Assembly (NCBI GenBank): GCA_003971905.1
Contig: RSEE01000089.1
Coordinates: forward strand, 124,001-188,000
DNA from: Moniliella sp. 'wahieum'
Taxonomy: Eukaryota
Direction: 5' to 3'
Length of the DNA: 64,000 bases
In this document: positions 1 through 62,987 of the stretch, piece by piece
Position numbering within the stretch: the first letter of the stretch is position 1
Layout of the letters: each line of letters starts with the position of its first letter
Notes under the pieces: model-generated
What the model saw: only the letters and a program-made list of their open reading frames with translations
Told to the model about the DNA's origin: nothing
Database searches by the model: none
Translations under genes and position numbers: made by a program

Positions 1-2782
1 GAGAGGGGGCTTGCATCCAAAACTTCTTCTGCCCATCACTACAGTCGCCCTCTTCTCCTTTGGCTCCGCTATGCATAGTTCGGTGGTAGATACATACCAC
101 CCTCTCCTATTGCTCGCTGTACTCCAACGCAACAAGCTCGGGGGCTGAAGCTCTGAAGCTCTAAAAAGCTTCAAGCTTCAAGGAAAGAAATATGTGTGTT
201 CTGGTACGTATGTGCACCTGTGACATGTCATGCATCACATATGATACACACCATACATCATGCATCATGTGATGAACTTTGTGGTATGTGGGGCATTCGG
301 CAGGAGATCTCTTGGTGTGGTATAGATCGAATTTTCAGTGACTAGTACAGATAACACACTGTCGCCGTCTCGTCCTTATAAACTGGTGCACTTTCTCCCC
401 ACGCTGCAACACCTCCTTTTTCATCTCTCTTGTTGCCACTTTCTCTCGCTTTGCCACATTCTCTGGTTGCCACAGTCTCTTGCCACACGCCCTTACTAGT
501 ACTCTCCCCGGCAATCCCAAACACACATACGCGGAGTCTCCGCTTTTGGGCCCATCAATTAATGCCTCAAGAAAGGCATAGTATATAGATCCGAGCATGT
601 GTCTCCTTCTCGGTTCTGCGATAGAGAGAGCAACCGTCCAGAAGGCACAATCAATATTAGACGCTGTCCACAGGCGAGATGTGGGGTTGAGGCGACCGTA
701 CGCTTGGGGCCTGGGTCTAGAGCACATCTCAGCGCACCAAATTCATCAACCGTTCGGAAGCACGTTCAAAGTACTCAACGCCGACCCAATTGCCTCACAA
801 CCGAAATTCCCCGCATTCTGAATGATTGATGCGTTGTCGAATGTTGATCTGCTTGATTGTTGCCCTCTCTCTAACAGTGTGATCGATGATCAATACATGA
901 TTCCGCAAGAAGCTCTCAGCTAATCAATGGCATAGGACTGCCTCCCAACGTAGTGATAGCGAACGTCACTACAAGTAAAACGGAGGAGGAACGTGCGCAA
1001 TGTATCAATGGAGGACGACCTGTTTCAAAGAGGTGGCCCGCACACCCATGACCAACGGGGGGGTACTTGTGCCACATGGTTGGTCAGCCGGTCAGTTCTT
1101 CAGTTAATATTAATAGCGTACCTACTCAGAAGGGGTTCGTTTCCTCGTAGTATAAGCATAGCAACGCCTGCCGTATTTGCCTATCAACACCACCACTTGT
1201 ATCTCGCACCCGCTTCTTCAGTATACTTGAAACTCCTCTCTGCTTTATGTTATCTGCATCGTAAAGCCCGTTGTCTCGCTGCATTCTGGCGTACTTGCGT
1301 CGCTACAGTACAACTGCACGCCCAATAAACCTCTGTTGCAGACAGTCTGTGTATACAGAGGCCTGTAATAAGCCCGAGGGGGGGCACCAGCCATAACGCA
1401 CCTTCATGTACCATGCATCTCATGTAGAGTTTGGAAGCGATGTGGGAGAGACGGAGGTCTTCTCCTCAGCTGACAAAGGGGTCCACACTCTGCAGTTCGG
1501 CCGCCGGAGACGAGGAGCGCCCAAGTGCGAGCGGAGATGGGCGAGTGGGTAGATCTGCAGCAGCGCAAAAAAAGGGGGCAGGAGAGGCGAGAGGCATTGA
1601 ACGGGGACGTGTGAACATGTGAACGTTGGACATTTGGATATGCATAGGGGCACCGCGGCAGTGAGGGGGACTCGGAAGAGGTGGCAATGGGCCCAGCGAC
1701 AAGGATGCCGAGTTGACGGCCACGCAAGCTTCAAGCGTTAAAAAGGGAGACGTGAGGTGTGACGTATGACGCGAGGGTTCAGCTGAACGCTGAGCGCTGA
1801 GCGCCGGTGAGCCTCAGCGCGCCTCAGGCCTCAGCGCACAGCGCGTCACCCCAATTCCTGAGGTCGGGGCGGGATGTGTTTTAGCAAATGGGTGTGGGCA
1901 ATCATTTTCGTAGGTTTTACCGCAACTAGTTGATTAGGGTCTCATCGTTGGTTCCTGAGTGGTATTTTCCCGAGGGTCAAGCATGCGGGGCGAGCGCCAA
2001 GGGTCGGATCTGTGCGTTAGTACGGTAGTGGTCCGGTTTGCCTTTAGTATATCACAAGAGGACCCCTGGGGTAATGTAATACGGCGCGTCCGTCTGTATT
2101 ATGTTACGTAGGCATATTATGTCTTGGGGGGTGGCCGGTGGGGGGAAGAGATTGCCAAGGTTGGCGGCATACTAGCCTCTCACCAACAGAGCATAGGGGC
2201 CCTCAGCACCACGTTTTGTGCTCGCAGGCGCGCACTGCCTCCTCATTCCTTCCTTTCCTTTTCTCTCTGTTCCAGTACTAGCTTCTTGTCTCCTTACCAC
2301 CCGCACGCTCTTCACTCTACTACCCGTGGTACCCTCGTCTGTTCATGGCTACCGTCCATTCGCTCGATAGCTTGGAGACCGCGCGCCGAATAGAGTGGTC
2401 TGCATTCACGGCGCGCGCAGCAACGCCAACCCCCCACCGTCAAATCCACAACACAATCTCTACGCTGACGCCGCGTCAACATTCAAACCCCCACCGAGTG
2501 GGTTTAGCATGGCGTCTCTCTCGATGCGCTGTGTGGCCCTCCATCCTATAGGCCACTGTGACATCAAGCTACCAAACTTAACAGAGCTGCCGTCTCCTGA
2601 TCACACCCAGAGCGTTTGTAGTGTGGATCAAAGTCTGCAGAGAACTGGCAGGGAGTAACATGACAATGAGACCTGGAGTCTCCTTTCTGGATCGATGCCA
2701 GCCCCATCCAGCCAACCGGTTAGAGAGCGTGTACAGGCACGCATCCAATCAACAGCTATAAGCGTTTGGGCGCATTTGGGCT

Positions 2783-2905
2783 AAGCGCTTGAGCGCATAT
2801 GGCCAAAAAGCGATTGAGCGCATGTGGTCAAAGCCCTTGAGCGCATGTGGTCAAAACCCTTGAGCGCATGTGGCCAAAGCGCTTAACCTCATGTGGCCAA
2901 AGTAT
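2783..2905. repeat. Degenerate ~23-bp minisatellite (about 5 copies of TTGAGCGCATGTGGYCAAAGCCC)
   Basis: Consecutive copies seen directly: gagcgcatatggccaaaaagcgatt / gagcgcatgtggtcaaagccctt / gagcgcatgtggtcaaaaccctt / gagcgcatgtggccaaagcgctt / aacctcatgtggccaaagtatct. Confidence 0.9.
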
Positions 2906-8345: not shown

Positions 8346-8378
8346 GGGGGCGATGGGAGGGGTGACCTGGCGGCGCCC

Positions 8379-8462
8379 GGTGCGGAAGGTGGTGCGGAAG
8401 GTGGTGCGGAAGGTGGTGCGGAAGGTGGTGCGGAAGGTGGTGCAGAAGGTGGTGCAGAAGGT
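8379..8462. repeat. 12-bp tandem repeat GGTGCRGAAGGT x7
   Basis: Five GGTGCGGAAGGT copies followed by two GGTGCAGAAGGT copies, ~35 bp upstream of the presumed permease ATG. Confidence 0.95.
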
Positions 8463-9315
8463 GGGGGACGAGGTGGTGGGGCGGAGATGCGAGCGGGATG
8501 CACCTCGCAGCGGGCAGCTTGGCGGTGGAGCAGAGCGCAAAACAGGCGCCACCCCCATGGATGGCAGCAGGCGCGGGGGCAGTGGAGATGCGGCTGGTAG
8601 CACTGCGCTGCAGCGGACTGCGGGCTGCGCTGAGCTGCACGGGGACAGCGCCTGCGGTGCAATCCGCGTTGCATGTGGTGCACAGTGCCCCATGCATGTG
8701 CTTGTGCATGTGCTTGTGCTTGTGCATATGCATGCGCCAGGTCCGTCCTGCCGCGGCCTAGTCTGCGCCACGGCACAGCCAGGCTCTGTCCCCCGTGTGT
8801 GTCTGTGCCTGGTCTGGGGCACAGGCAGCACAGGCAGCACGACAGCTAGCGCAGCACGCACCCCCTCCAGTAGCTCGCGTGTGTGACATCTGACCGGTGA
8901 CGCTGCTGGGCGAGGCTTGGCACTGCCCCTGTCCCCTGCCTGGCTCCAATCGGCCATCTGCAATCTTTTAATCAGGCCGCAGCGCACGGCGGCGGGGCAG
9001 TGGCGTAAGCAGGCAAGCCACCCGCCCCGCATGGCCTGCATGCATCATGCATGACAGGCATCACACGACTCTCGACCCAGGCGAACGCATCAGAGTGCCT
9101 TTGATTGTTGTTAGCGCCACACGCGGAGGGTCACCGGTCACCGGTCAGGGCTCCCTTCTTGTGGCAATGCACGAGAGGCGGATGACGCTGACGCAGAGGA
9201 CGACCATGTGGCCATGAGACCATGCGATGATCGAGCGTCTGAGCGGAGACCAGAGGCCAGAGACGCTCGCTCAGGAACTATAGGAACACGTATTTTTGTC
9301 CTCCACCCACACATC

Positions 9316-10021
9316 TTATTGCCGAGCGATGAGAGTAGAAATGCCCAAGTTGGCAGAGCAGGATGCCGCTATATCGGGGAAGACATGGCTAAGCAAGGGA
9401 TTGTTCAGGCAGGGCACCCTTGGTGTGCGGCCAAAGAAGTTGCTCGGTTCAGAAGTTGATGCGCTGCACCCCCCATTGTACAAGTCAAACCGCTGTAGCC
9501 ATCCGTAATACCGCTGTCGGACACAACCCGTCTGAGAAGACTTCAATTGGCCTACACACAATTTTGTATTGGACGTTGACTTGGAAAAGAGAAACGGAGG
9601 ATGATCAGGATCCGAGAAGCTGTTGGGCCACACACAACGCGCCGGTTGACAGCTCCACCAGCCCCGCATGCCTCATTCTGAGAGCCACTGTCGGCGTGGT
9701 GCGCGCCAATCCGATTTTAACTCACATGTCACATAGCTCGTGGAGATGACCGACTAAGTTGTCTTCAGTCATCCGGTTACTCAGTCCCTTTCCCTCATTC
9801 TGTCGGGACCGGGCCTCATTCTGTCGGCGAGCGGCCTCAATATCAGCACATTGGACGGTAATCGGTTGACCAACGTAAACAACGGAGCATCCATCCGTCT
9901 TGTTGGAAGGCTCACAGGTGATAGGTTTCCTAATACAAGGTCCGTTTGGGTCGTAAGCACCTAGGCCCCCTTGACACACAGCTGTATGTGCTACGTCGAA
10001 AATAATATCCTAAACCACATT
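9316..10021 (-). CDS. Possible orphan small secreted Cys-rich protein (frameshifted or spliced)
   Basis: ATG at ~10021 gives MWFRILF and, after a 1-nt shift, DVAHTAVCQGGLGAYDPNGPCIRKPITCEPSNKTDGCSVV..QCAD. A gtgagt donor lies at ~9724. The downstream Cys-containing ORF is 9316-9669. No family recognised. Confidence 0.3.
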
Positions 10022-12191: not shown

Positions 12192-12537
12192 GGGTACGAT
12201 CGTGTGTGTCGCCGCGCCGCCATCCAGGTCGTGGTCCAGGTCGTGGTCCGATCGTCGAGGCGCTGCTGGCCTTTCAGCCCCGCTGTGGGACAGGTGGTGC
12301 AGCGGACCGAATTGCAATGGCGGAACTCGGAGTAGCCTGCGTCCTATCTAGGGAGCCGCTTACCAATATATACACGTTTCCTTTCTATACGCGTGTACAA
12401 GCCAGGCCATGCGATGCCATGGGGGGACGGCCTGGTGGGATCGCAGCCTCGTCTATCTGGTCTGTGTCGGGAAGGGCAAAGCGTGGGAGGCGAAGCTGGC
12501 TCAACCTGAGCGCTCAATATTCAATCAAGACATCTAA

Positions 12538-15500
12538 CTAGTAACTCGAGACCAGGATGGTGCTCGTCGCTCTGGTCGCGAACTTAGGACGCGAACCAGA
12601 CACGCACGGCAACTTGGGGATCCATCCACATACGATCATGGATGGCCAATAGGACACGCTTAGGCCAGCGCCCCTACCAGCAGCGAACAGTAGTCGTTCG
12701 CCGCGGTCAACACCGCGTCGACACTGGGCGTAGGCTGGTGCTGCTCGACGGTGGCTGCGCCATCGAGGGCGGAAGCCGCCGCCAAGGACCAACTGGGGTC
12801 CACCTCGCCATCGTCGGGACCTTGCTCCCGTCCGTGCGTGTACCGGAAGAGAGCGCGCGACACAATACCCAACGACGCCATCACTGCCGAGCAAAGGAGA
12901 GGTTAGTTGGCCAATTCAAAGTCAAGTAAGCGAGAGCAAAACGTACTGTCGATTTTCGCCGCGTAGCGCGTCAGGGCACCAGGCGAGTTGTCCTCCTCGG
13001 GGGGAGCAGTACGGTAGGCACCACGTCGCCAGCTCCGAAATCCGCGAACAGGGCTTGGATGACCGAGTGCGCTGTCGTTGCCTCTTGCCGCCGGAAGGAG
13101 TGGAGGAGTGGAGTGAGCGACTGGGTTACTTCGACCCAATCAAGGTAAAGCTTGCCCCCCCAAGCCCAACCCGGACCTTCTCCTCGCCCGCTGCAGCTCC
13201 ACTTCAAGAAGGAACGGGTCAAACAGTTTCTTGAGCAAGTTCCGGTCGCCGCGCACAACGATCTCTGGGGCCAAATCACGCACCGCCACCGCATGAGCTT
13301 GCGCCAGATCGCGGGCCTCGAGAGCGTGCTCGTACACCCGCCAGAGATCGTCCTTGCCACGGGCCATGAAGGCACGTGCGAGTGCAAGCCATGACCGAGG
13401 CACCTTGAGTGTGGACACGATAACTCCTCTTGTTCCGAAGTGAGAAGATGAATCGAACGGGCGAGCAAATTTTTGATCGCTTGCGCCCGGCTCTCGGGCA
13501 ACTCCAAGTACAACAGCACAAATGCTGCCCATTGAAGGTGCCCGCCTCCTCAAGCTGGCTTGCTAGGTCGAGGGTCAAACGATCCGCCTTGGCACTGTTG
13601 TGGTCCATCACCACCAACTGCAGCTCCTCCTCACCCTGCACCACATTCTCCATCGGATCTTCTACCGGCGCCCCCTCGCGATCGGCAAAGTCACGGACAC
13701 CCAAAACGCGCGAGAGGAGGAGGTAGAGTTGCCAGAAAGGCGGTAGGATGCCGAGCTGGTGCTGTGTCCCGTAGGAAGAATGGCATCTTCGAGCAAGTAG
13801 TCCTGTTCGGATACACCTTGAGCAACTGATAGATGGTGTCCTTTGCGTACTTGTTCGATCGAGTGAGCTCCTTGGCTTTGGACGAAGGGAAGCTCGTCTC
13901 ATCCGCCAAGTAAGGCGGCAAAGGCGGGGGAGCAAGCATCGAGGTCACGGCGTCGTCGAACGTGCTTACAGCCTTCTGCAGTGGCTCCTCAGCAAGCGTA
14001 CCATACCAAAGATGGAGGCCAAAGGCACGCTTCCAGTCAAGCGAGTCGGCCAGATGCATCTCGGCCACTTTATCCCCCGAGGCAGCGCCCCCTGCAGCCT
14101 CCGAGGGTAACGTTGCCTGCCAGGAGTTCGTAGAGTTTGCGCATATCCTCACTCAACAGCGAATAAATCCCCTCATCTCTCCACGTGCTGAGCTGGTCCA
14201 ACATGTCTTCCCTTGTCCCCTTATCTCCAGGCAGCTGGGCCAGAAGAGTGGCAAGATGAAAGTCGTTGGCCCCCATGGCGGCTAGTGTGGCCTTCTCCAC
14301 ATCATGACTGGTCAGGTGGGAGAAGATGGCGGCCTCAACCCTTTCCTGGGCTTGGAAGCCACGCGCGTTGGCATCGGCACTAGGAGTGACTGCCGTCTTG
14401 AGCCACTGCGATAGGGCAGCCTTCCGGCGCAGGTCGGTCGCCTGCTGGCGAAGAGCGGGGGGCGCCGTGTCGGGGAGGCCGAGCTCCAAATCATCAAACA
14501 AGGCACTTCCCAAACGCCAAATGTGTGCTTCTTGCCGGTGATCGCCAGTCTCGAAAAGGGAAGCATAGTCGCGAAGCGCAAATCATTTTGCGGCAGAGCG
14601 CGTGGCACCCCATCCTCAGGAACGAATTCGATCGTCGTGTGTTCCAACTGGGCCTCCAACATTTTGAGAGATAGCTCATCCTCAGCGGGAGGCAACGTAA
14701 GGACTTTCACCTGGGACGCCGTCACGATGTCCACATCCTTCTGCGCACCCACCCGAACAAACAGGTTGGGGAACCCGAATCCGGGACGGAAGCTACCCGT
14801 AAAAGCAACGACAGGATCAGTCCACGTTCCCTCGGCACCAGCAGGACAGACTTGTCCATCGACGTTTTATAAACTTGATCCGTGGCTGGGTCGTCAACGT
14901 CGACTTGGCCCCAAAGTTGGCGCGGGCGGTCGAAGGGACCAAGGCGGGAGGGAGACTCCCCTCCCGAACGCTACTCTCACGTACAGAATGACTGCGCACA
15001 GATCCAACAGCTGGAGCAGGACTGATGCCACGGGGGCCAAAGGTGCAGCCACGGGGCGGACGAGGTCGTGGGAGGACCATTGCGGAAGACACTCGATTGG
15101 AACAACAATGTTGGCTCTTCAGCCGGTGTAGCCGACACTTGCCGTCCAACCCGCGGCGGGGGACGCTGCTCGTCCAAATCGCCAAGAAGCTGGCTTGCAT
15201 GACCTGCATTCGGCGAGGCTCGACATGCATCGCTTCAGCGAAGGAGACAGGTCCTGAAGTAGAAGGCGGAATGATAGCGTCCTCCTCTTCCTCTTCTTCT
15301 AGCTCTTCATCGTCCATCACATCGTCCTCGCTCTCGGCGGTAGCGGCGCTCGTAAGAGCCTGTGACCGAGCGCCGGCAGCCACAGGCTTAGAAAAAGAGT
15401 GAGACGGGGCCGTGTTGTTACGCCGCAGCTTCCTCCTCTGCATCATCGTCCGAATCGTCATCAAGGGCATAGCGGAGAAGTGCTCCACCTGGAACGACCA

Positions 15501-18906: not shown

Positions 18907-19463
18907 GATGGACGTGGAGGGGAGTGTGGGGGAAGGGGTCCAGGCGCAGGCAGGCGGGCGGGGGGGGGCGTGCGCTGGGAGAGGCGGTGGTGGGCGAGAG
19001 AGCTCGGGAGCAGCGGCGCGCCGGGAGGGTGGCTGCCGCACGACTGCTTCCTGCCGCCCGGCCTGTTCCGCACAGCAGCGCCGCACGGGGGCACTGCCGC
19101 CCAACCCTACTGCTGCGTTGCGATTTTTCTACGCACTGCATTCTGTCGCCAGCGCCTGCCCGCCCCCTGAGCCATCACCGGCACATCACACCCAGCCTGC
19201 GAGGGGGTCCATGTGCTGGCCACATGTCACATGTGATGTTGGGACAGGATGCATGGCGTCATGCACATGTCCATGTCACATGTCATGTATGATGGTCCTG
19301 CCACAGGCTGCTGCTGCTCGGGCCGTTGCCACTGGGCACACCCCCCCCCCCCCAGCGCTCACTTGATATATGCCCACGACGCCCCTATCTCGCCCTCCAC
19401 CGCCAGCCCCACCGCTACTTGCACGTCCTTCCCACTCGCTTCCGTCCCACCACCGCATCCCAC

Positions 19464-23107: not shown

Positions 23108-23574
23108 GATGGTGGCGGGGCGGGGGGCAGGACCCGGCAGCGCCTGGAGCGCAGGGGCGGAATGGGCGGCTGGGGGCGGGGAACAGGCGGGGCGCGGGGG
23201 AGAGCGGGCGAGGATGGAGAATGTGTCAGCGGTCATTGGCAGTGCGCGTCATGCATCGTGCATGCTGCGTTGACGTGGCGAAGACAACACCTGCGCTTTG
23301 GGATCGTCACGCGCCAGCGTCATGCATCATGCGTCTGCCTCCGACATTCGACGGGAGAACGCGGCGTAGGACGCCGCACGGGGGCAGTGGAGGCGAGGGG
23401 TGGCCAGGTGCAGCGCAGCAACAGACGAGCGCAGCGCCAGAGGCCGTATTTTTTTCTCGCCTGCGCCCGCCCGACTTGGGGCGACCGCAGGGCAGCACGC
23501 CCAACGGAGGCGCGGGGACGCGGCACCTCTTCCTCCTGGCCACCATCCCCCCCCCCCCCCCCCCACACACCGCC

Positions 23575-24981: not shown

Positions 24982-26386
24982 GCATCTCCCTCCGCCTGCC
25001 TCCCGAGGGAAATCTCTACCCTTCGCTTCTTTCCCCCAGATACCGCCGACACTCCATTGAGGTCTCTTTCCTTGCACCTGGACGTTCGGTCCCCCCCATC
25101 CTCTTTCTCTTTCCCCTTTCCCCGCTCGCGTTAGCAATCTCTTATAAGTTGACCACATTCCTTCTCATCGGATATGGAGAATCATCTCTCATAGGGACCT
25201 TCACAAGAGCAAGGCGTTACTAAAAGTGGGAGCGGGGGGGGGGGGGATTCCTAATTATATGGCATGTGAATCGGATCGATGGATGCAAAAAGAGCACAAG
25301 TGTAAAATCACAAATTGGCTTCACTGAACCAGGCTTGCGCGTGGTTCATAATGTCGATGCATCATCGACGTTGCCCACATCCATTGCGAAATGAGTCGTT
25401 CAGGATAATATCAAAGGTCTCGATCGATGTCTGCTCGATGGGACCGGTAAGGTTGGCCTCCGACCCAGAATCGGGTCCTGCGCCGCAGACTTACAAGTGG
25501 GCACGACAGGTTCTCCCAATCCCTTGACCAGTGCCACTAAGTGGAGCGGAATCTGCTTGCGGACAAACGTATAGGCTAGTGGGTTTGGTCCGCAAGTGAA
25601 CTCAATTTCAGGTGGAATGAGTACCTCCATCTCGTAGCTCAAGGATATGTCCACATCCTCTTGGTCTGGCAATCGTATCCGATGCCTGGGCAGGAGGACG
25701 AGCAGGCAAGGCTGGGGGTTGCCGCATCTTGCCTGTGACCGTCAACCCGCTTTAGCTGTCTGCGTTGCCATGAAGACGACCATTGGTAAAACCCACGTTC
25801 TTCATCCTCGATGGCTTGACGAGCGCTGCGGCGAAACTCGACGAAACAAGAGAGCGTCGCAGGCTGTCGCGTCCACTTGGTCGCTGGAGCTTACCGGGAA
25901 CGTGCCGACTACATAGGCGTAACTCATTCAGGTGGCACTCATAAATCGGGCAAACTTTCAAATCCATTTAGCTGGCTCCTGACTTTCACGTTGAACGTCC
26001 AGTTGAACGTTCAAGTTGAACGTTGAACCAACGTCCCATTACATGCATTACGTTGACATTGACCATCGATCATCGATCACCGGTCACGGTCACCATTCAT
26101 CATACATCATGCATCATGCATCACATGTCACATGTGATGTCAGTGCATCAGACAACCGCTGGAACTACTGCCGAGTACCCGATTCACACAACTCCTGTCG
26201 TCCAGCACACAAAATCCCCAAGATGCATCTGTGTCCTCAAGTACCTCAGTAGTGCACCATTATGTGGGGCGTGCGCATCAACCGAATTCATTGTTCCCGC
26301 GCGGGCCCATCCCCACATCACGATTCTGGCCAGCCCACGTACTCCCCTCCCGTCACACCACCACCACGCCCACCGCCAAGACAGCC

Positions 26387-28368: not shown

Positions 28369-29233
28369 TGTGAAGCGAGTGATGAGAAGCGTATAGGTGG
28401 ATGGATGAACGTGGGGGGTTGCGTCACAGGGCTTCCACATGAAGCAGGCGCATACGCCCGCCGCAACGAGTCTTTTATTGCGCCTCGAAACAGTGATAGG
28501 GTTGGGTTAGGCCTTTGGGCTCGTGGAGCTTGGTCAAGCCCTCACGGAGTTTACATTTCAATTCTGATTGGTTCCAAAACATGGCAGTGAATATTGAAAG
28601 TGTCAAGCTAGTGACTTCAGTGACTTGATTCACTCTAGTGATGCATGATGTACTCGAGTAGTCTGGGTATATTGACCGGTCAATTAACCGGTGACCGACA
28701 GGCAGTTCCGACAGCCGAGCTCGATCTTCCTCTTGCGCCCTTTGTGCCACCGTACACCAGATCCATTTGAGCACGGACGAGATAACGTGTGGCGGCGACC
28801 GGCAACAGCCCTTGCTTTGGCAGGTAATTGAAGGTAAAACATAGGCAACCTAGTGTCTCTCCAGCACGTGAACTGAGTTGGACCAGAACATTTTGAACGG
28901 TTGGACGAAGAATCGGTCTGGGCGCACTTGCCATCAACCCGTAAGTAGTATCTCCACCAGACAAGTGCAGCGGCATCAAGCCCGTTGTGAGTGGCATTGA
29001 GCATGTGCCTACCGCATGTGCATGTGCTTGCTACGCCATCCGCTGTTGTCTGTTTCATTCTATCAATCGTTCCTGTCGTGCCAATGTATGTGGCTCGTGC
29101 GTTACGGCAACGATGGGAGACATCGTTTCAATGGGAGCACGCCAGGAAAGCCTATGGAGTGAAGTGGCAACTCGAATGGGCATGCTTTTGTACGAAAGAC
29201 AACGCAAGATTATGGCGCATGACACCATGGCCA

Positions 29234-34218: not shown

Positions 34219-37200
34219 AGTGATAACGATCGAAGAATGTGCACGGATCGAAGGGAACGGGGATCCAGCCCAACGCAGAGCTTCAGCGATGAAGTGTGGG
34301 GATGAGGGGGCGGCTGAAATTATGGGGTTGTAGTTTTACCAGCAGGTGGTAAGAAAACTACAGCGGCAAGGGGAGGGTCCAAGGATGAAAAAGAGAATCC
34401 ACGGAGGGTATGCGTCGCTTATATATGCATCCGCTGATATGTGTAAATGCAATCCGACTCCCATATACTTGGGGAAAAACCATGATGCAGAAGAGACTCA
34501 GGTCAGGCGCTAGAGATAGCCACAGCCATAGACCGCGCTCCCTCTACCGCAAAAGCCCAGCCCCGCCCCAGCACCTGAGGCAGTGTGTGGGCAGACAAGG
34601 ACAGGATTCTACGTGTCCAGTGGTAATGCATAATGGCGGAGCCACAGCAGCTAGCTAGCTTATCTTGGCCCCGACGGTTCTTGCTATATAATACGGACGC
34701 CAACACTGCCCCCCTATAGCGGGAAGCAAATCGAGGCTTAAGCCCCCCCCGCAATATCAATACAGGTACAGGGCCAAGCTTGGCAGCGGCTGACACTGGC
34801 GCCAAGCCGCGCGAGTTTCGACGCAACACTGCACTAGTGCGGGTGGCGGCATTTTTGCGTCGACGGATGGCACAGTGTTATACCGCGGCCTTGGCCTCAG
34901 GCGCTCTTGGCACACACCGCCGCCTTGCCTATCTCTCACAGCTGCGTATCTATATCAACTAAAAAGCCTCTCGTGGAAGGTGGCACCTGATGGTGCCTGC
35001 CGTTCCTGTATTGGGTGTCCCTGGATAACATGGATGACAACATGTGGCCTCTGAGAGATCTGGAGGAAGAAGCGCCAGACGCACTGTGGCATGCACAGAA
35101 GATAAGCACTCCCAGCCAGACATTCGGCGAAGGTGACACCGTTGGCAACGAATAATAGTTGAGGTCATTAATCATTAACCATGCCAGCGTTGTATATTCC
35201 CAGCTTCTTGCAGTGGAAGCTGTAACAAAAGGACACACAAATCGTTAATTGGGTAGTGTATGACACCGCTGCGGCTCAGCGCTGAGCTCAGCTGAGCACT
35301 GACTGAACACGGAACTTACTGAACGAAGGCGCGCTAATCTTTCGACGTATGAAGCACCACAAAAGATTGGCCGACGAAAGAGATAATAAAGAGGTGTATA
35401 TAGAGACGAGATGAGAGCCGGCGCTGTGTGACCTATATGCTTTTGTTACGGGCGTTTTGTGCGAATTAGAATTGACGATGTAAGTTATTCCCTATGCCTT
35501 TTTTCCTTTTATATTTTCCCCTCCTACCTACTGACCGCAGGCTGATTAAAGTGGTGCCTTGTGCCACTTTAAGAGGGCTGCTGAAACTTGAAGGGCTGTG
35601 AACGCATGTGAGCGCTTACTAGTTACTACGCCGACATGAACCGCGTGATGCATCATGTGATGAGAGCGCCTGAGCCCTTCTGAGGCTTGAAGCTTGAAGC
35701 CTCAGGCCCTGATGGCTGAACTGATGTGCTGAGAGAGTCAGGCCTCAGGAGCTAATCAACCTGATTGCTCAGCTGAGCGGCTAAGCGGACAGACTGATTG
35801 GACATGGTATGGGACAAGGATGGTCGAGATGGCATCTTCTGTGGCCCAGAGGCTAGGCCCCGCAACATATCATTCATTGCATCATACATCATCCATGTTA
35901 TGTCGGTGAATATTGAACGAGACTATGTATCTCCGCACGGCGGCACCGCCGCTTAGACAGCGACTAGTGAGATCTGAGATCTGAGAGAGAGAAACGCTGA
36001 GCGCTGGCTGAGATCTGTGACATTGGGGATTAATTGATGGCGCTATGGACCAGATTGATGCATCGAATTGATCATCGATGATTGTTCATGACATGTACCT
36101 GCCCCCTACTGTACGGGATCTCGGGAGATTGCGCCTTAGTGCGCCCCCCTGCTGGAAGGCTTTCGCGGGCCGTTTTTTGTTTTTAAATCGGGTCGCTATA
36201 GTTCTGTTTGGGGTCTCTGTGTACAGTGCATCATATGCATTCCGATACTCCAAGTACACAGAGAGGTGTAAGTAGAGAGGGGAGGCGCCATTAGTTCCAG
36301 TCACTAGTTACTATGTAGGCACACAGTTATACGGTCCCAAATTCTGTTTCGACTCCCCGGCGTGCGCGCGCAGACCGAAACCATGCGTTTGCCAAGTCTG
36401 ATCAATTTCCATCGTAATGCTCCTCCATACACCATACTTCTTCAAGCTTCAATAGACAGGGTGGACAGGATGTTGTGAGACTTAGTGAGAACTGCAATCG
36501 TTGTGTATTCACATGCTGATGATCATCACTCTGTAGCACAGGGACTGGAAAAGGTCATATCGATCTGTGTACAGTTCAACGCTTATATAGTTTGTGTTGT
36601 GATGTAGGATTCGCACCAATCTCCGGTCTTGAGGTTTTGCAAATACTACCCACACAGTGTATGTCATCCGGGCCTATAGGCCGAGGGGGTCTCTTCCCTA
36701 TCATTGCCCCATCCACGCCATATCCATGGGGCTGGTGCGAGCCGCATGCCTTATGGAACGGCGCAGCGCAAGAGACCAGCGAAAAGTGCTATAGAAACGT
36801 GCGGTATGAAGTACCGACGCTCGCTTCCCTCTTCCACGGATGTGTCAAAGCAGCCCTGGCCCTTCCCGGGCGGGTAGCCCTCCGCGTAATGACCAGGGAC
36901 ACAAAAAGGCGACTAATGAGGTGCTCACTTGAGGTGCTTTTTGCCTTGCCCCGGGCGACAAAACGTCCATCTCCTTATTCCTGCACAGCTCGTATACCGG
37001 GTGGTGGGGGCGTGTTGGTGACGGACGCGGCGCCTCTCGGCGTCACGCGTCTTGTTCCCGAAGGAAGTCCAAGACATATTATAGGTTGTACGATGTCATC
37101 AAGTACTTTGAGGCAATGATGCCGTCATCTTGATGCCTGTTCGGTTGGTGGTGGTCGTAGTGCCTGGGGCGCTTCAATTTGGCGAAGGGGCCTCAACAAA

Positions 37201-42934: not shown

Positions 42935-43542
42935 CCGCATCATTTTGATGTAATATCTCGCCTCCTCTCATCCAATAAGCCCTTTCTAGGGCCTTTATAT
43001 GTACGTTTTGATTGGTGAGATGGATGAGCGCATCGCGATGAGCGCTGAGCATGAAATCCTCCTGTAGTGTAATGATTTGGGCCGAAGAATTCCAACCTGA
43101 CGAGTGTTTTCGGGGGACCAGGAGAAACGCTCACTTCAACTTCAACCACGTCTAAGTTCAAGCTCAAATGCAAAATCAAAGGCGTCCGGATCATACAGTC
43201 CGACCCTAGTGTTTTTGCATCCAATATTCGTAGCCGCCTGCTTGCTAACCGCTATATGGTCAAGATACGAGTAGGCCGACGTGTTGACCTTCCGTAACGT
43301 TTAACTTTCAAAAGCAAGCAAAAGTCCTCAGAACCCAGGCCTCGCTGTACTGGCAGTTCTCTTCGGGTTCAAGCTTAAAGCTCTTTGAGCTCACTCGGAA
43401 GGGGTTTTTCATCCATCTCTGTAGGGTGTGGCGTCTCACCTTTCTTGATCAGCGATTTCCACGTGTCGCAGCAACATCAGCGCTCGCGTTGCCCTTTCTC
43501 CGCTGCCCGCCCACTATGACATACTACGGTAAGCGTGTTTGC

Positions 43543-44455: not shown

Positions 44456-45233
44456 GCTGGACATTGGCTAAGCGGGCAGGCCGCCCGTCGCCAACATTGA
44501 CGTATCTATTGGAGTCGAAACCCCATTCAATGGGAAGCATGTCAAGTTTTGATCATAGATGAGAGTACTGAGTGAATATTGAATGAGCGATTGGTTGCTA
44601 CGACGGTTGAGCGCTGAGCAAAGACCGGTCGGCCGCGGTTGGGGGACGATATAACAGACGGCTTGGGAAAATGCGCAGGGAGAAGGAATCCCTGTGCGGC
44701 ACCTCCAAGTTCCCGACTATCAGCTTGGGGCGAAGAGTTACAAATCATGATGAGTGGGATGATTAATGACGCTGACGGCACTTGGACTCCGCGCTCACTA
44801 TGAGACCCATGGAGAAAATCACAAATGTATGTGACGCTTTTGTTTGCCGAGTTGGAAATATGCCCCACCAGAATTGTAGCCGATCGGAGCTTCAAGCTTC
44901 ACCGAAGGAGTAGGAACCGGCCACGCCAAAAACACTGAACCTGCCTCGCGAGGACGAGTGGGGTTCATGCGTTTATTGCATGAACAACGAGATGCATCGT
45001 GACAGAAAGGATGCAGCGTGACAGAAAGGATACAACGTATAGTGCAAACGTCTAACATGTAACACATGTAATTCGTAGCCGAGTAGCTGGATTCCATCTG
45101 CTATTTGAGTGGCGAGAGTGTAACATGCAAAGCCCTGTCCCAAAACAAACAGCCGAAGAGTGTGATGTGTAAAACACACGCAAAGCTGCGCGCTCTGTTT
45201 ACATGCATTACATGTTACAGGTCGCCTTGTAGT

Positions 45234-45275
45234 GAAGCTTGAAGCTTGAAGCTTGAAGCTTGAAGCTTGAAGCTT
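45234..45275. repeat. (GAAGCTT)6 heptamer array with palindromic AAGCTT core
   Basis: Six perfect tandem copies seen directly. Confidence 0.97.
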
Positions 45276-46124
45276 GAAGGGGCACGCTCTACTGTGGGTT
45301 GAACCGGGACTTTCACTCCATTTCTCGCTCTCTTTTTCTTCCTAAGTAGCCTCTGCTTTGCTATCATAGCTGCCCAATGGAGAGTTGTGGGGATCTCTCT
45401 GAGGCCAGAGCGCCTGGGAGCCAAAAACTCTCTCCCCACCCCCACATTGTCTTCGTAGTCTATGATGTGGCGCAAAAGCGAAGGCCGAGGCCCCCCGGCC
45501 GGGGACACACTAACCATCGGGAAATGACCGGTGACGCATCGGCGAAAAGGGACGCTGAGTACCTGAGTACCTGAGTAACCCATGTGCAGCGTGACATGTG
45601 CCACACTGGGGTAGCAATGTCATGTCAAATTTCATTAGTCCAAGGTCGAGGATGGCCGAGGATGGCCGAGATGCAACCCCAGACTAGCCCCAACCTTGAC
45701 GTTTAAAATTTAACGTTTGACGTTGACGTTTAACGTTTTAACAGCGCATGTGAATACGTGAAAAGGAACGCTACTATACGCATGATGGGTGATGCATGCC
45801 GCATGCCGCGTGACACGTGACAGCGTTTTTGCGCTCAGGCCGTGGCGCGATTATACGTCGACGCACGCACACGCGACGGGAAAAGCGGGGCAGCTGCCGC
45901 TGGCCAGTGCCACCGGCCGCTACGCCGCCACTGCGCCCTACGACGCGCAGTGAGTACTGAGTACCAGAGAAACAGGCATATTGCTAAGCGGGGAGCGGCA
46001 TCAACGACGTCAACATTCAACCCTACCAGGCCTTTTAAGAAAGGTGGAAGAGCGCATTGGCCACTATAGCATCTTTCTTCGCGCCGCCACCAACTCCTGA
46101 GCGTTTCCCCAGCAATCCCTCCCT

Positions 46125-48731: not shown

Positions 48732-50084
48732 CCAGGGGAGCAGGGGCGCAGGCTCAGCTCTCAGCCTCCGAAGTTGGTCTGATTAGTATGTTATCTTGAC
48801 TGTTATAGTACTCGCGCATAGGGTCGTCATGGCCAGGGAGGAACGGCCCTTGAATGCGTCCCGGTGGTGCTTGCCGTTTTGTCGCATTCTGCTTGCTCTC
48901 AAAGTCGATACAGCTCCTTCTCCCTGCGTTGGCAGACGTTGCCGTCGCCTCGTGTGCATTCTCCTGACAAGGGTTGTACCGGTTACAGGCCTCTCAGATC
49001 TCACTGATCATTCGTGCCCGAGTCCCTTGGGGTGTGGCCCGCTTCCGTACAACATTCGGCATCGTCTGTTTCCGCCCTCTTGGCATCCTCCTTCTCGAGC
49101 TCTGCAGCGATTTGCTGCCGAGCAGGTAGGTGTCTGTGCTTGGGCCTAGAGCTGGGGCACCTGAAGTGGAGATCGCTCGGCCTCGGAAACCTCCAGCACA
49201 GCACGCCTGGATGCGTGGACTACTAACTACAGACGGGACAGCGCGCACTATGCTCGAGGCCGTGCATCTCTTGCACAGCTCATATCGGCTGCCTCTTGCA
49301 GCAGGCAATTGGAAGCGCACGTAAGCCACGTAAGCGGAATTGAGCGCTTGAGCAGCTCAGCGTCGCCGCGCTGAGGCTCAGCCCTACGGGCCGACTTGGC
49401 GATCTTGGCATCGCACCAGTGCGTACGTACACAGCCCCTCGGGCATCCGACCACTCTCTCGCCTGTCCACACACGCCCACCACCGCAGTCCGCCTCCTGA
49501 AGGCTGACCGTCAGCCTTCAGCGCTTCACCTGGGACTCGGGCCCGCTGAGGCCGGCACTGAGGCACTGAGTACTGAGGCCGAGGCCGGATGCGTGGTGCA
49601 TGATGCGCGATGCATGATGTGGGGTGCTGATCGGCAGCCGCCGAGACAGAGGGTCGGTGTGGGGGCAGTGTGTGTTGGACTTTGCAGCGTCTAGGACCCG
49701 GTGCCGCGCGAGGGCCCGCTGTGCTGGTCGTGGGCACACAGCCGTACTGCTGCGCGCATCCCTCTCGTAGAGCTTAGAGCCAGCATCCTTGCCACGCGCG
49801 CGGCATTCGTGTTACCCACTGCCCTCGTGCTTGATCGCATCCCTCGGTGCAGAATATCGGACTGGCCCTGTGCCCGTCTTCACCCACGCTGTCGTCATGC
49901 ATCGCGATCTAGCTTGCTGGGCGCTGGCCTCGCCCAGCCAAGCTGCGAGCTTCAAGCTTCACCTCCCCTCGCTTTGGGCCCACCCGAAACCACCACACCG
50001 CATTGCTTGTCTCGCATCTTCTTCTCCCTCTCCATCAATCTCCTGCCCCCTGCTCATTTCCTCGCCCGAACGACACTTTTGGCC

Positions 50085-50977: not shown

Positions 50978-52289
50978 TTCGAAAAGCATTGTGCAGTTCG
51001 ATTTTGGTACGAGGCGATCCCTAGCTCCCTGTATCTGCCTCTTGTTTCCTATCTCTCTTCTCTCTCATCACCTATCACCGGCTGGCCTGTTAGTTCTCCA
51101 AAAGCAACCCAGTAGCGTGAGGCCGCCAATGCCTCTTCCCCCCCTCACTTTTTCTTTGCCTCGTTGCAACATACTTTTATTACCCGATTCTCGCTTTGTC
51201 GTTATATCGAGCATATTGTGCTTGTGCAGTTATGGTTTAGTTGCTCTTCTCCTTGTTACGTTTCTTGTCGGTGGGTGTGACTGGGTGGATAGGCCTCATA
51301 GGTCTTCCAGGAACGGACCAAGGGTGAAGGAGAGGGTTCAAGTCGGGTAAAATGGACATGCTTTTTCGTCCACTACAGTGGTAGTAGGGTGCGTCTACAC
51401 TCCCGATGCTGTGGATGCATGTGGCCGCGGCAGAGATTGACCTTTTGACTTTGCAGTGCATGCATAATGACATGCAGACAAAAAACAATGGGCACTTCCG
51501 TAGCTGTGGTGGATCGCCCAATCATGCTTGGTGAACCATGTAGCCCAGTAGTATGACAGCACAAAAGGATGGGTGCGCCTTATTGTGAGCCGAAAGTCCG
51601 TGGTGGTGGGGGTAAATATGAGCATCTCTTTGCTTTAGTGTTGCTCTAGCCTCCATCATACACATGCCTGCTATCAGTATATATCACAGAACTCAAGGTG
51701 TAACACGTGTAGCACAGATCGATCTTCCGCCCCAGCGTGCTGGAGCAACTGGAGAACAGAGAGTTCCACAAAGGAGAGTTCCACAATAAGATCTCGGGAT
51801 ACTCAGAACGTACCACCTTGCATGGGTGTTGCAGCCGTCTTCCTCCTCTTTAATCATCAGGCTGCTTCAATGTCCCTATTGGGCAGGACTTCCAGTGGTC
51901 TCATGCATCATGGATGCACACCTCATCACGAAACCTAACTTCAACGAAGGGACTGCGCTACAGGGGCTGCATACGACGTATTAACGCCATGCAATCAGAT
52001 CACTTTGGAGGCACGGTATATAGCTACAGTACAAGTGATGCTGTTGGTGCGGAAATGGGGTGGAATCTTTTTGACATCGACAGCATCGGAACAAAGGGAG
52101 AAAAGCAAGGGCTGCAGCGAAAAGCAAAAGGGCAGCAGCGAAAAGCAAGGAATTAATGCGAGCGAGAAACTAGACAAGCACCCGAACAAGGCAGCTAAGG
52201 CAAGGCAAGGCAAGGCAAGGCGAATCGCGGGTTGGGTCGGCTTCAAGGCTGAGAGCTGAGAGCGGAGAGGCGATCCGTCACGGTAAGCT

Positions 52290-58064: not shown

Positions 58065-58676
58065 TTCTACTGTCTGAGGGCAAGAGGCAACAAGGTGGTG
58101 GTGGCAAGGAGCCAGGCCAGGTAGGCAGCAGAGTTGCTCATCTGTCGACTGACAAAGCGCAATCCCCTGCGCTGCCGGTCGTTTCACACGGTAAGGAACC
58201 GCGGCATTAACCCAGTGATGCATGATGCATGGTGCCACTCGATGATGGAGACAGCGCCTCCAGCGGATCCCCCTTAAGACCGTCACGTTTCAAAGTTGTT
58301 GCAATTGGGTACCAGTGACGTCACTTGTGAGTGCTCTCCGCTGACTCGGACTGAGCGGCTGAGCGTCCATGCAGCTCTTATGGTACTCACAGTGACTAGT
58401 GGTGAGTCCACTGAGCTAAGGGGCTTAAAGAGGCTGGACTAGCGCGGGACCAGGTTGGACCTCGCTCGACTACTGCGCCGGTTACCGGTTACCGGTTACC
58501 GTTACCAACCATTCATTAGGGTCATGGTGTTTGCGCATCGCGTAGTCGCTCCGGTCGCTTAGCTAGTTGGCCACCCAGCTAGCTAATCAGTCAGTGACAA
58601 CATACCGGCACTGGTCAGGACGCGGCTCACGTCGCACAAAACCACCACCAAGCAATGCTGCGACGACGCCCAATGA

Positions 58677-60152: not shown

Positions 60153-61002
60153 CTGCTGTCGTCTGTATGCCAGCCAGTCTGGGCTATTGTGGGCTTCTGC
60201 TAGCTTTGGGAGGAGGCTGGTGGAGCAAGAAAAAAAAAGGTTTGGCGGAGCATGAAATTGAAATGTTGGAAGCATGGCATGCACACGTGACATGGGTGGG
60301 GTTGTGCATTAGGGCCTGGCGCAGTTGAACATTGACGCGTGACATGTGACAGCAGGCAGAGGAAAGCATGGGACTGGCATGGCGTTCCCGGGCGGATGGG
60401 CATACCAGGCACCAGGGGTAAACTGCTTAGCGCTTGCACTGAACACGGTAATAAGAGGCTCAGACCTCCCCTAAGCAGGAGAGCCTGGACCGGCAGCGCT
60501 TACAGATGGGCCCGTGACATGTGGCATGCTGACATCCGCTGACAAAGGTGCCCAGTGGCATGTGTGGCGCTGCGCCCCAACTGGTCTGGAGCGCGTGAAA
60601 ATACAGCGACTTAAAGCGACTGCGGCACTGCGTTGCCCTTACACTGCCGCCGTGCGGCGGGGATAGCTGGCCCTGTGCGAATATCCGAATGCCCGTCCGT
60701 TGCTACGGAGCGTACTGGTACGCCAAGGGCAAACACAGCCGCTGTGGTAGCGTCGTAGCTGCAAAGCGCCCCTCCTTGCTCTTCCTGGCCATGCCCTGGG
60801 GGGGAAGCTGGAAGGGAGATCTGCGATTTGAAAGATACCAACGGCTCTAGGGTGATCTGCTCGATTCACGAGGAGTAGCATTGTGGATCAGTACCTACTT
60901 GCCAAAAGTGTGCAATAGTGCGCTTCTTGCCCCCCCCCCCCCGCACCCGCCACCACCACCCCCCCCTGCTTCCCCATCGCCTTCTCTCGCCTTCCTTTAA
61001 CC

Positions 61003-61546
61003 ATGTCTTCCACCCCTGTCTCAATTGCAGAAGCCGAGCTGGCCAAGCACAACACGGCTGCTGATTGCTGGATGGCCATTGGGGGGAAAGTCTACAACGT
61101 TACCGACTTTCTCGACGAGCACCCAGGCGGTGACGACATCCTCCTCGCTCAGGCTGGCAAGGACGCCACTGAACCCTTTGAGGAGGTAGGACATTCAGAC
61201 GATGCGAACGAGCTCATGGTCCCGATGCTGGTTGGAGAACTAAAACTATCGGAGGTATGTGTACCAGTCACGCTGCCGCGCGCCTTCTGCATTCACGCTC
61301 TCTCTACCTCATCTGACTAACGCATCTGTGACTTCCATTCGTATCCAGGAGGCAGGAACGTCCACGAGGGGAAAAAGGGACCCAGCCAGCGTGTAACACA
61401 GACGTGAGTGCTTCAGCCTTGCTTGTATTCGGGGCCATGTTGACCATTTCCTTGTTTGCATTTCCATCCCTATCAGTCTTTTCCTTCAACTCATTCCCAT
61501 TTTGGTTGTGGCGGCCTCGTATGGATACCACCAATACTATAGCTAG
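61003..61546 (+). CDS. CYB5: Cytochrome b5 (tail-anchored), 2 introns
   Basis: KHNTAADCWMAIGGKVYNVTDFLDEHPGGDDILLAQAGKDATEPFEEVGHS; C-terminal TM LIPILVVAASYGY after splicing. Confidence 0.95.
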
Positions 61547-62987
61547 CGACTGTATTGGCAACAAAAACGCACATATCCAGCTATACCGATCAATCACGCC
61601 CATGCTGACCATCTTTTCCGTGTCATGGCTCACATTCTACCCTCTTCGAACCTGTCTGCCAAATTCATCTGCCGTGCGTTATGCTTCTACGACGTTAACA
61701 TATAACGTGTCCAATGAAAATGCATAATGCATACACGATGGATGGTATCAACTTCAGGTTCGAACGGCAAGAAAAGAATGGTGAGCAGGACACCAAGTAA
61801 CGGGAAACACAGACTGTGCATCAGCTTAGCACCTTTCACCACCGATTACCTTTGCTCGTATGAGAATGTTTCACAACGTTTCGCTGATTGCCCCTTCCAT
61901 CTTGGCACGCGGGGAACATACAGGCATAGCAGCCCGCTGTACCATGCCAGGAGATGGTTCGTGTGGCGATTGCTATCCACCGGCTCAATGAGCAGTCGTA
62001 TCGCTCGTCTTCTTAATCTGGAGCAGACGCGAGCGAACAGGAGTTTCGTTCATCTGCTTCGAGACGCCTTGACAAATCGTGGGGGTTGGAAAACGTACCA
62101 ACCAAATCCCCCTTTGTATTTTTGGGCCATATATTCCTGTGCACCACATGCGTCTTTCCGGACAATGGGCACCTTCTAAGCGCATTCGTTAGCATTTCAT
62201 CCGTCACCCCATTACCCGAATCCCAATGAGTAGTCGCCTGGGTGCTGAAAGGAAGGACGCGGCGGAGTCTTCGTGGTCAGTAATGATGGGCTGCGCACAC
62301 TCCAAAAAAGAGGGTGGGGAGAATACTAAGAGTCTCATTCGAGCAGCGCTTGGTGGCCGTCTCATAAGGATGTCCTCACCGCCTACAAAGCACCGTACTC
62401 CTCGTAGGTTGACCCTTTTAAAGTGCCCAGTAATCGATTTCCTCTCGCCATCCTGTGGGATCTGTCCACCCTGGGACGAAACCGAGGACTCACTGATCTC
62501 CATCGCAGCAGATTGATTGGCGTACTCTCAGTCCCCGTGCGAAACAGCAGACGGGCTCTCGTTGGTGGTGTAGTACATTCCGTACGTCTGATGGAAACCA
62601 TCGTACTAGCTGAACGTCCAACTTCCGCGCGATCTGTCCCACCGGTAAAAGGTGTGTACACGACGTTCTCACTTGCCTCGGATCCAGCAAAGAGGGTGGG
62701 GGCAGCCGTAAATGTTGAGGCTGTGTGATTGACCTTACCCTACGAACCATGGAACATGGTAGCAGTGGTGGTGTTGGTGTTGGCGGAGGCCCTTGTTTCC
62801 CAGCCCAGCATCAGCGCCATCATGCATCAGCATCATGCGGCGGAAAGACAGAAACACGCGAGAGGACTGGTGTAGCGCCCGCACCCGAATTCCGCCCCAG
62901 GTTTCCGCCCCCTGGCAAAAACGGGGGGCAGACAAAATCTTCTCTGCGCCGCTTTGCCGACGGCTACCTCCAACGTACTGGTGCACC

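Follow-up and report, generated by a model that had tools for sequence, protein, structure and literature searches.

T-N-A-punctuated palindromic heptamers in a 64-kb window of Moniliella sp. 'wahieum': possible scars of a recurrent 7-bp insertion

Introduction

Cleavage by hAT, Transib, MULE and RAG leaves hairpins on the flanking DNA, and end joining leaves footprints (PMC5499845). Transib elements generate 5-bp duplications at family-specific targets (PMC1131882), and relatives of hAT show duplications of 5, 6 or 7 bp, those of 7 bp in rust fungi (PMC12730594). PIF/Harbinger-type (PHIS) elements of the NuwaII group, whose target is TNA set between C and G (C/TNA/G), have been reported in two basidiomycetes (PMC4482050). 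The DNA considered here, hereafter the window, is a stretch of 64,000 nucleotides from Moniliella sp. 'wahieum' (assembly GCA_003971905.1, contig RSEE01000089.1, positions 124,001 to 188,000). It carries numerous heptameric units in which a palindromic hexamer A-xyy'x'-T (x' and y' being the complements of x and y) is followed by one further base, so that T-N-A triplets recur every 7 bp. These units follow an exact structural rule, are specific to T-N-A, exceed chance and lie in non-coding DNA.

The pattern resembles the hairpin-type footprints of hAT, Transib and MULE and the P nucleotides of V(D)J junctions, in which a short direct target duplication is combined with a few inverted-copy bases of the adjoining flank and the junction length varies (PMC5499845, PMC1131882). 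It differs from them in that only one side is copied in inverted form, almost always over 2 nt, that TNA lies at the edge of the repeat and is not a symmetric target, that the arrays are iterated and that the window holds no element. With PIF/Harbinger it shares a T-N-A trinucleotide with any middle base, but the PHIS duplication is 3 bp, or 5 bp as CTNAG, whereas here TNA is copied with two arbitrary bases on one side and is flanked by x' and x of any kind, not C and G; the excerpt consulted describes no footprint of this form for PHIS (PMC4482050). The closest known kind is the transposon or V(D)J-type footprint; as two features of that family, P nucleotides on both sides and a cognate element in the window, do not show here, the pattern is said to work like such a scar and is not claimed to be one. 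In the records and excerpts that a literature search returned, there was no description of T-N-A-punctuated palindromic heptamers or of the 5+2 copying rule set out below, and the literal array strings matched no paper.

The reading favoured here, with a probability of roughly 0.5, is that the arrays are mutational scars of a recurrent, TNA-specific 7-bp insertion of the break-repair or transposon type, later amplified by slippage, and not a code. An earlier note, made from the sequence alone, had described them as a window-wide promoter grammar. All the clusters that it named contain the pattern when the sequence is read, and the rule is exact and unusual; the name is nevertheless an overstatement of the result; the exact loci span about 600 bases altogether. 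On the Ustilago heptamer runs that the note had mentioned, the literature search returned nothing. All counts given below come from this single 64-kb window.

Excess over chance

Palindromic A....T hexamers form 27 pairs at a distance of 7 bp, against 0–3 pairs at each other distance from 4 to 16, save distance 14 (10 pairs), which bears out the hexamer-plus-one-base spacing described in the earlier note. At 7 bp, the C-, G- and T-class palindromic hexamers give 0, 3 and 1 pairs. Markov controls (100 simulations each of order 2, 4 and 6) yielded mean numbers of 0.46, 0.79 and 2.86 A....T pairs, with a maximum of 7. Identical units account for 18 of the 27 pairs; the remaining nine join different hexamers in register, as had been noticed (simulated means 0.4–2.0, maximum 5), and all nine have the same spacer base. 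At least 13 of the 16 possible A....T hexamers had been listed, and all 16 are in fact present. Among the 64 trinucleotides, those with the strongest 7-bp self-correlation are exactly TAA, TTA, TCA and TGA.

The comparisons with non-palindromic cores, other spacings and a Markov background that had been proposed as checks point the same way. N4 is palindromic in 81 of the 203 TNA-N4-TNA sites (40%), against 3.6–8.5% in the 15 other X-N-Y flank classes and 6.7–25 such TNA sites in the simulations, and TNA pairs with gaps of 2, 6 or 8 show no palindrome excess. Fifteen of the 16 possible palindromes are used as cores between TNAs, TATA being absent. As the total of palindromic hexamers (1052) is near that of the simulations (about 950–1050), such hexamers are not over-represented as such and the signal sits in their arrangement. 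Tandem Repeats Finder reports 22 rows of period 7, 16 of period 8, 4 of period 5 and 1 of period 4; 19 of the 22 period-7 rows have a palindromic hexamer in their unit, of the A....T class in 18. The heptamer is thus the commonest repeat unit size not divisible by three in this output, which speaks against pure slippage, a process generally taken to prefer short units. Taken as a whole, the 7-bp T-N-A palindrome pattern is genuine and lies far beyond chance.

The elementary unit

The elementary unit is a 12-mer, [TNAxy][y'x'][TNAxy] (D-P-D), that is, a 5-nt direct repeat whose copies are linked by the reverse complement of its last two bases. The window has 68 exact D-P-D 12-mers, spread over 40 loci; Markov simulations of order 4 predict 0.38 (maximum 2), and each of the 15 other X-N-Y classes has 0–7 equivalents. 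If the same units are parsed as 4+3+4, 85 have A at the second position against 3–6 for C, G or T, and T precedes 68 of these 85, which indicates that both T and A are needed. An isolated unit of 1.7 copies is the commonest form. Direct repeats of TNAxy at periods 5 to 12 number 3, 23, 90, 18, 19, 17, 4 and 18, respectively, and the gap is the reverse complement of xy in 68 of the 90 found at period 7. Unbiased scanning for period-7 runs whose maximal extent is exactly 5 nt and whose 2-nt gap is palindromic returned 24 entries at 21 loci, with D = T-N-A-x-y in 15 of the 24 entries.

The spacer base is repeated directly. Across the 81 palindromic units, N is the same on both sides in 63, complementary in 12 and otherwise different in 6; at distances of 8–29 bp, only about 57% of TCA/TGA pairs are of the same type (our own arithmetic from the self-correlation counts). 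The same-N pairs (C 25, G 27, A 7, T 4) roughly track the abundance of each TNA, and the limit to T[CG]A half-sites that had been suggested does not hold. The rule extends to singletons: 44 of 139 singleton TNA-N4-TNA sites are palindromic, 32 of these 44 with the same N. Among isolated units (n = 52, none adjoining another unit), 26 carry the first half of the core (two bases) directly behind the second TNA, 20 carry the second half directly ahead of the first TNA, and 39 show one or the other. Base by base, the sequence after the second TNA matches that 7 nt upstream in 36, 26, 15 and 16 of the 52, so that the palindrome centre is the exact point at which the match falls to background (15, 16). 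Among the 38 same-N isolated units, a direct repeat length of 5 nt is the most frequent (15 units). The 40 loci use 14 of the 16 cores, roughly according to the supply of TNAxy in non-coding DNA.

Variants of the junction also occur. At periods 8–10, the gap begins with the reverse complement of xy in 16 of 54 TNAxy repeats (0.9 expected, maximum 3), and these variable junctions resemble end joining. Perfect 10-bp palindromes made of TNAxy and its reverse complement number 12, against 3.1 expected. Two hallmarks of hairpin-type footprints are therefore present, namely a direct duplication (the TNAxy repeat, of modal length 5) and P-like nucleotides (the 68 of 90 gaps given above).

These data also bear on a fold-back or template-switch process, which the earlier note had offered as an alternative. 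As in quasi-palindrome template switching, each unit partly repeats adjacent bases in inverted form, and a mutational-looking origin with an inverted copy is retained here. Fold-back synthesis, however, predicts a complementary N, whereas the main class repeats N directly and the repeat extends beyond TNA by exactly two bases, on one side. Direct N and the two-base overrun indicate a 5-nt direct duplication with a 2-nt inverted copy, not a fold-back.

Arrays and mixed arrays

For the ends of the 52 period-7 runs, (0,2) extra bases are the commonest combination (19 of 52), and the run length modulo 7 is 5 in 20 of them; among the six multi-unit arrays, four (starting at 9129, 26105, 35968 and 45233) have lengths of exactly 7n+5. 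Mixed arrays can be read as two blocks, the left one with a core that agrees with the two bases preceding the first TNA and the right one with a core that agrees with the two bases on the right; this parse (for example of 26065–26140 and 35960–35986) was done by hand, with one mismatch allowed in two cases. As a single strand, the longest array (47 nt) forms an imperfect hairpin, always with a T-N-A triloop (here TGA), and none of 200 shuffles folds as well (z = -5.3). Five of six shorter arrays fold modestly better than shuffles (z -1.6 to -2.8) and one does not (z +0.8). Hairpins may aid array growth and are not a general property of the arrays.

Short tandem repeats in promoters, the length of which changes by slippage, offer an obvious parallel, and promoter repeats of this kind have reportedly been studied in yeast. 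The present repeats differ from such microsatellites by a heptamer with a palindromic core, a fixed T-N-A, 7n+5 lengths and isolated 1.7-copy units as the commonest form. Ordinary microsatellite dynamics, in which palindrome-bearing heptamers would form slipped hairpins and so expand more readily by replication slippage, would in any case be required for array lengthening; they agree with the fold of the longest array, with the 18 identical pairs at 7 bp and with one 8-bp variant that was propagated as an 8-mer. As the whole explanation they are improbable, since they leave unexplained the restriction of junctions to T-N-A (there are 3 G....C and 0 C....G pairs, although such hexamers would form stabler hairpins), the palindromic cores of 44 of the 139 singletons, the halt of the direct repeat exactly at the palindrome centre, the 7n+5 lengths with fixed phase and the fact that all nine in-register pairs of unlike cores share their N. 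The modest or absent folding of the shorter arrays also counts against them. A slippage microsatellite would show whole units in any phase, with an excess only from at least two copies, which is not what is found.

Two other repeats of the window may be mentioned here. A 23-bp tandem repeat at 2760–2902 (6.1 copies, 82% matches), non-coding and upstream of a DUF7702 gene, has a unit that holds TGA+GCGC and ends in TGGCCA, and may be built of the same kind of pieces. At 52197–52221, a perfect (AAGGC)x5 adjoins a GCTGAGA heptamer array whose palindrome is only 4 bp (AGCT).

Position relative to genes

Open reading frames (ORFs) of at least 100 aa span 86% of the window. As codon-usage self-training and G+C at third codon positions were too weak to separate coding from non-coding DNA, only Pfam-supported ORFs, which make up 28.8% of the window, were taken as the coding sample. 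They contain 3 of the 81 palindromic units, each of which lies at the upstream end of a stop-to-stop ORF and precedes its likely start codon. The rarity in coding sequence noticed earlier is thus found again, and the equal density that would have spoken against it is not seen. Arrays lie about 35–900 bp upstream of ten genes (putative, hand-picked start codons), where a few hundred bp had been stated before; the distance to the ATGs is not fixed and both orientations relative to genes occur. Three short intergenic stretches read as convergent on a tentative gene map have no arrays, and neither does the region upstream of Gar1.

An artefact of amplification, sequencing or assembly, for example template-switch chimeras, has hardly any probability. 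Strand-displacing polymerases do make inverted chimeras, but an artefact would hit coding sequence as well (which holds 3 of 81 units in 29% of the window), would not single out T-N-A (68 exact units against 0–7) and would not turn up at 40 loci where decayed copies stand next to perfect ones.

A cis-regulatory grammar would give the arrays a function: one or more dimeric factors would bind TNA-punctuated palindromes in tandem at 7-bp spacing and mark promoters, nucleosome-free regions or origins, and selection would keep the arrays. Palindromic hexamers are typical dimer sites, and the half-site cores of bZIP factors (AP-1, CRE, Yap) in both orientations are TGA, TCA, TTA and TAA; bZIP sites, however, are inverted half-sites 1–2 bp apart, whereas the triplets here are direct repeats 4 bp apart. 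Such a grammar is in line with intergenic arrays that lie mostly 5' of genes within the distances just given, with the array-free convergent stretches, with identical 16- and 19-mers in unrelated promoters (described below) and with some over-use of the TGCA, AGCT and CATG cores. It remains an unlikely explanation, and the tandem-binding factor with T[CG]A half-sites proposed in the earlier note finds no support in the window. Almost any palindrome serves as core (15 of 16 between TNAs), roughly as the supply of TNAxy predicts, where an array of transcription factor sites would have a conserved recognition sequence, and complementarity without sequence preference argues for copying and not for reading by a protein. 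N is repeated directly (63 against 12 complementary), so the unit is not the dyad that a homodimer would read, and array ends obey the copying rule (7n+5 with (0,2) ends). Position and orientation, which would be constrained in such an array, vary (about 35–900 bp, both orientations, with guessed start codons), and one promoter region, that of Gar1, lacks arrays. The depletion in coding sequence is expected for any 7-bp insertion with stop triplets. Location does not separate function from scar, since a frameshift follows from any insertion of 7 bp and a TGA or TAA at each 7-bp step puts stops into all three frames.

Proposed origin of the units

Under the scar reading, the following model can be drawn. 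In the founding event, 7 bp would be inserted beside a T-N-A, TNAxy being copied directly and the copies being linked by y'x'; this would automatically yield the palindromic hexamer A-xyy'x'-T followed by the same N. As the product again ends in TNAxy, growth would proceed in 7-bp steps, by further events or by ordinary 7-nt slippage between the 5-nt copies, leading to arrays of 7n+5. An event in mirror orientation would draw on the two bases at the opposite side of the TNA and thereby add a different palindrome in the same register, which would produce the mixed arrays. The founding event could be the repair of a break with a 5-nt stagger, the T side remaining clean and the xy-side end going through a hairpin or turn-around that would add 'P-type' nucleotides if opened two bases off its tip, which is the usual distance at which hairpins are opened. 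A nuclease of the transposase type, from a transposon that inserts and excises or from a domesticated relative, would produce the break, acting in open intergenic chromatin. Hermes, for its part, prefers nucleosome-free DNA. The scars would survive in non-coding DNA, since a 7-bp insertion with TGA or TAA would not be tolerated in coding sequence.

Other schemes were considered and rejected. A footprint made of a 3-bp duplication and the terminal bases of an element predicts no match past the second TNA, where the first two bases match in half of the isolated units (26 of 52). Duplications of 7 or 8 bp of the hAT type with complemented end bases predict other sequences (worked out by hand), and a symmetric 5-bp target x'TNAx with 1-nt P on each side would restrict the cores to four. 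If a whole 7-mer were duplicated in tandem, the second core should be complete, but its last two bases match at background.

Several observations weigh against the scar reading. The first is asymmetry: TNA occupies one edge of the repeat and not the middle, and only one side has an inverted copy, which is unlike what would be expected of a symmetric transposase dimer or of two hairpinned flanks. P nucleotides would be expected at either flank, and the T side alone provides the inverted copy in none of the 90 TNAxy repeats of period 7 and, for copies of at least 2 nt, in only 1 of the 54 of periods 8–10. The plain 5+0 duplication product is rare (3 cases). No cognate element with the same duplication lies within the window: identical 3-nt flanks are found for 15 of 868 pairs of inverted repeats in it, none of them T-N-A; none of the 13,108 candidate pairs examined there is flanked by TNAxy with a terminal inverted repeat of at least 7 bp; Pfam detects no transposase domain in the window's 264 ORFs of at least 100 aa. 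A search for dispersed repeat families in the window gave short motif matches only. The TGCA, AGCT and CATG cores are used about twice as often as expected, and two of the six multi-unit arrays (30993 and 58478) break the 7n+5 rule. An identical 19-mer is found at 19221–19239 and 26122–26140, in unrelated promoters without flank similarity, and an identical 16-mer near 23244–23260 and 40993–41010, again in unrelated promoters with dissimilar flanks. Both are composed of TCA/TGA and CATG/TGCA/GCGC pieces, and such longer strings shared among promoters could point to function; the promoter-side location of the arrays fits a functional reading equally well. The whole case, moreover, is drawn from the sequence of one 64-kb window.

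The asymmetry fits naturally a replicative scar without any transposon. After a nick just 5' of T-N-A, the polymerase would synthesize about 5 nt by strand displacement and turn around for 2 nt, and the product would be ligated to the 5' flap left uncut, giving the same 7-bp insertion. The T side, as the 5' end exposed by the nick, would stay clean, and the inverted copy would be confined to the xy side; the lack of any element in the window would fit as well. This model has a low probability: it is our own construction, we know of no nicking activity with TNA specificity, and the variable junctions at periods 8–10 look more like end joining.

If the rule holds genome-wide, the scar reading would provide a clean, countable mutational signature at single-base resolution, showing where a sequence-specific break or insertion has acted, mostly in promoters. 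Heptamer arrays and palindromic hexamers would then arise without selection for binding, which calls for caution before they are read as a regulatory code, and the signature would offer a handle for finding the responsible enzyme and for asking whether it drives promoter evolution in the lineage. A more specific version is conceivable, though rather doubtful: a domesticated PIF/Harbinger-, hAT- or Transib-like transposase, or a replication-linked process, would keep writing 'copy-five, invert-two' 7-bp insertions into open promoter DNA, as a TNA-specific nicking or cleaving activity new to science. In that case, a measurable share of promoter DNA and a steady supply of new palindromic sites would come from one dedicated mutational machine, and the scars would record its sites of action.

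Table 1. Exact D-P-D loci, arrays and related features of the window.
Feature	Position	Strand	Method
D-P-D locus, core AGCT, both orientations	169..182	.	sequence read + exact 12-mer scan
D-P-D locus, core TGCA	256..269	.	exact 12-mer scan
D-P-D 12-mer, D=TGATC	880..891	+	unbiased run scan + 12-mer scan
D-P-D locus, core GCGC, within degenerate cluster 1726-1850	1789..1802	.	
D-P-D 12-mer, core GGCC	1822..1833	-	
Two-unit array, core CCGG, period-7 run 12 = 7n+5	9129..9147	-	
D-P-D 12-mer, D=TCACA	9722..9733	+	
D-P-D 12-mer, D=TCAAT	12514..12525	+	unbiased run scan + 12-mer scan
D-P-D 12-mer, D=TAACT	12535..12546	+	unbiased run scan + 12-mer scan
D-P-D 12-mer, core CATG, ~370 bp upstream of likely Nup98-96 ATG	19274..19285	-	
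D-P-D 12-mer, core TGCA, between CwfJ-like (-) and DnaJ (+) genes	23320..23331	+	
D-P-D locus, core ACGT	26015..26028	.	
D-P-D 12-mer, core TCGA, first block of mixed array 26065-26140	26068..26079	-	
Mixed array, TGCA block then CATG block, N = C throughout	26105..26132	.	
D-P-D 12-mer, D=TGATG, within degenerate cluster 28588-28695	28639..28650	+	
Three-unit array TAA+GCGC, ~290 bp upstream of likely Ebp2 ATG; period-7 run 17, not 7n+5	30993..31016	.	
D-P-D 12-mer, D=TAATG	34624..34635	+	
D-P-D 12-mer, core TTAA	35165..35176	+	
Degenerate stretch, very TGA/TCA-rich, fillers 2-7 nt	35560..35800	.	sequence read
D-P-D 12-mer, D=TTACT	35616..35627	+	
D-P-D locus, core AGCT, centre of 24-bp near-palindrome	35686..35699	.	
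D-P-D 12-mer, D=TCAGG	35738..35749	+	
Two-unit array, core GATC, period-7 run 12 = 7n+5, CTAG unit before	35968..35986	+	
D-P-D 12-mer, core AGCT	36440..36451	-	
D-P-D 12-mer, D=TGAGC	43039..43050	+	
D-P-D 12-mer, D=TGAAT	44573..44584	+	
D-P-D 12-mer, D=TGAGC	44608..44619	+	
D-P-D 12-mer, core AGCT	44890..44901	-	
D-P-D 12-mer, D=TAACA	45053..45064	+	
D-P-D 12-mer, D=TTACA	45208..45219	+	
Longest array, (TGAAGCT)x6 + TGAAG, 47 nt, period-7 run 40 = 7n+5, ~850 bp upstream of likely fatty-acid hydroxylase ATG	45233..45279	+	
8-bp variant array, TGA + GTAC + extra C, 2.9 copies	45555..45577	+	Tandem Repeats Finder
D-P-D 12-mer, core AATT, within degenerate AACGTT-type array 45692-45738	45702..45713	-	
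Sole clear G....C analogue, GCATGC + C, 2.3 copies, C-N-G junction	45794..45809	.	Tandem Repeats Finder
D-P-D 12-mer, core GTAC	45951..45962	+	
D-P-D 12-mer, core GATC	48992..49003	-	
D-P-D 12-mer, core GTAC, within degenerate cluster 49340-49620	49565..49576	-	
D-P-D 12-mer, core AGCT	49950..49961	-	
D-P-D 12-mer, D=TCATG	51901..51912	+	
D-P-D 12-mer, core TGCA, ~150 bp upstream of likely mitochondrial-carrier ATG	58216..58227	+	
Array TTA+CCGG, fourth unit with 1-nt deletion	58480..58500	.	
D-P-D 12-mer, core CATG, last unit of mixed chain 60326-60351 (ACAT, CGCG, CATG), divergent promoter	60340..60351	+	
D-P-D 12-mer, core TGCA, upstream of likely eIF3d ATG	62818..62829	-	

Gene content and other features of the window

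The window is nuclear eukaryotic DNA with a G+C content of 52–65% and short, interrupted ORFs. Pfam identifies ordinary housekeeping genes, encoding an amino-acid permease, an MBOAT acyltransferase, Nup98-96, a CwfJ-like protein, DnaJ, RPL31e, Ebp2, a PTR2 transporter, a CCCH/FG nucleoporin, a fatty-acid hydroxylase, Gar1, a mitochondrial carrier, a lysine methyltransferase, cytochrome b5 and eIF3d. Searches of the window for RNA genes gave no tRNA and no Rfam family. The best named relatives of the Ebp2 ORF (29325–30890, - strand) belong to Ustilaginomycotina (Tilletiaria, Meira, Parajaminaea, Sporisorium, Malassezia and Jaminaea), with about 44–56% identity over about 41–55% of the query. 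To judge from these protein comparisons, the source lineage of this ORF is a basidiomycete of Ustilaginomycotina affinity without a close relative in the protein collection searched. Nothing above about 56% identity to it was found among 5.8 billion proteins, and the lineage seems unsampled at the protein level.

At 6055–7630, 10236–11326 and 13694–14582, single Pfam domains are divided among adjacent or overlapping ORFs in different frames, which suggests short introns or possibly frameshift errors of the assembly. A (CATC) repeat of 10.5 copies (7030–7071), located between two segments of the amino-acid permease ORF, is probably intronic. A near-perfect 12-bp repeat, GGTGCGGAAGGT, is present in 7.2 copies at 8379–8464, within long overlapping ORFs upstream of the permease domain. 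Two genes encode FG-repeat nucleoporins, Nup98-96 (12974–19100, - strand) and the CCCH-finger FG nucleoporin (41054–42945, + strand). The commonest palindromic hexamer of the window, TGGCCA (57 copies), probably owes its number to FG-coding repeats, many of which carry TTTGGCCA. Two C tracts lie just upstream of likely start codons, a run of 18 C (23547–23564) before that of DnaJ and a C-rich tract of 37 nt (60930–60966) before that of cytochrome b5.

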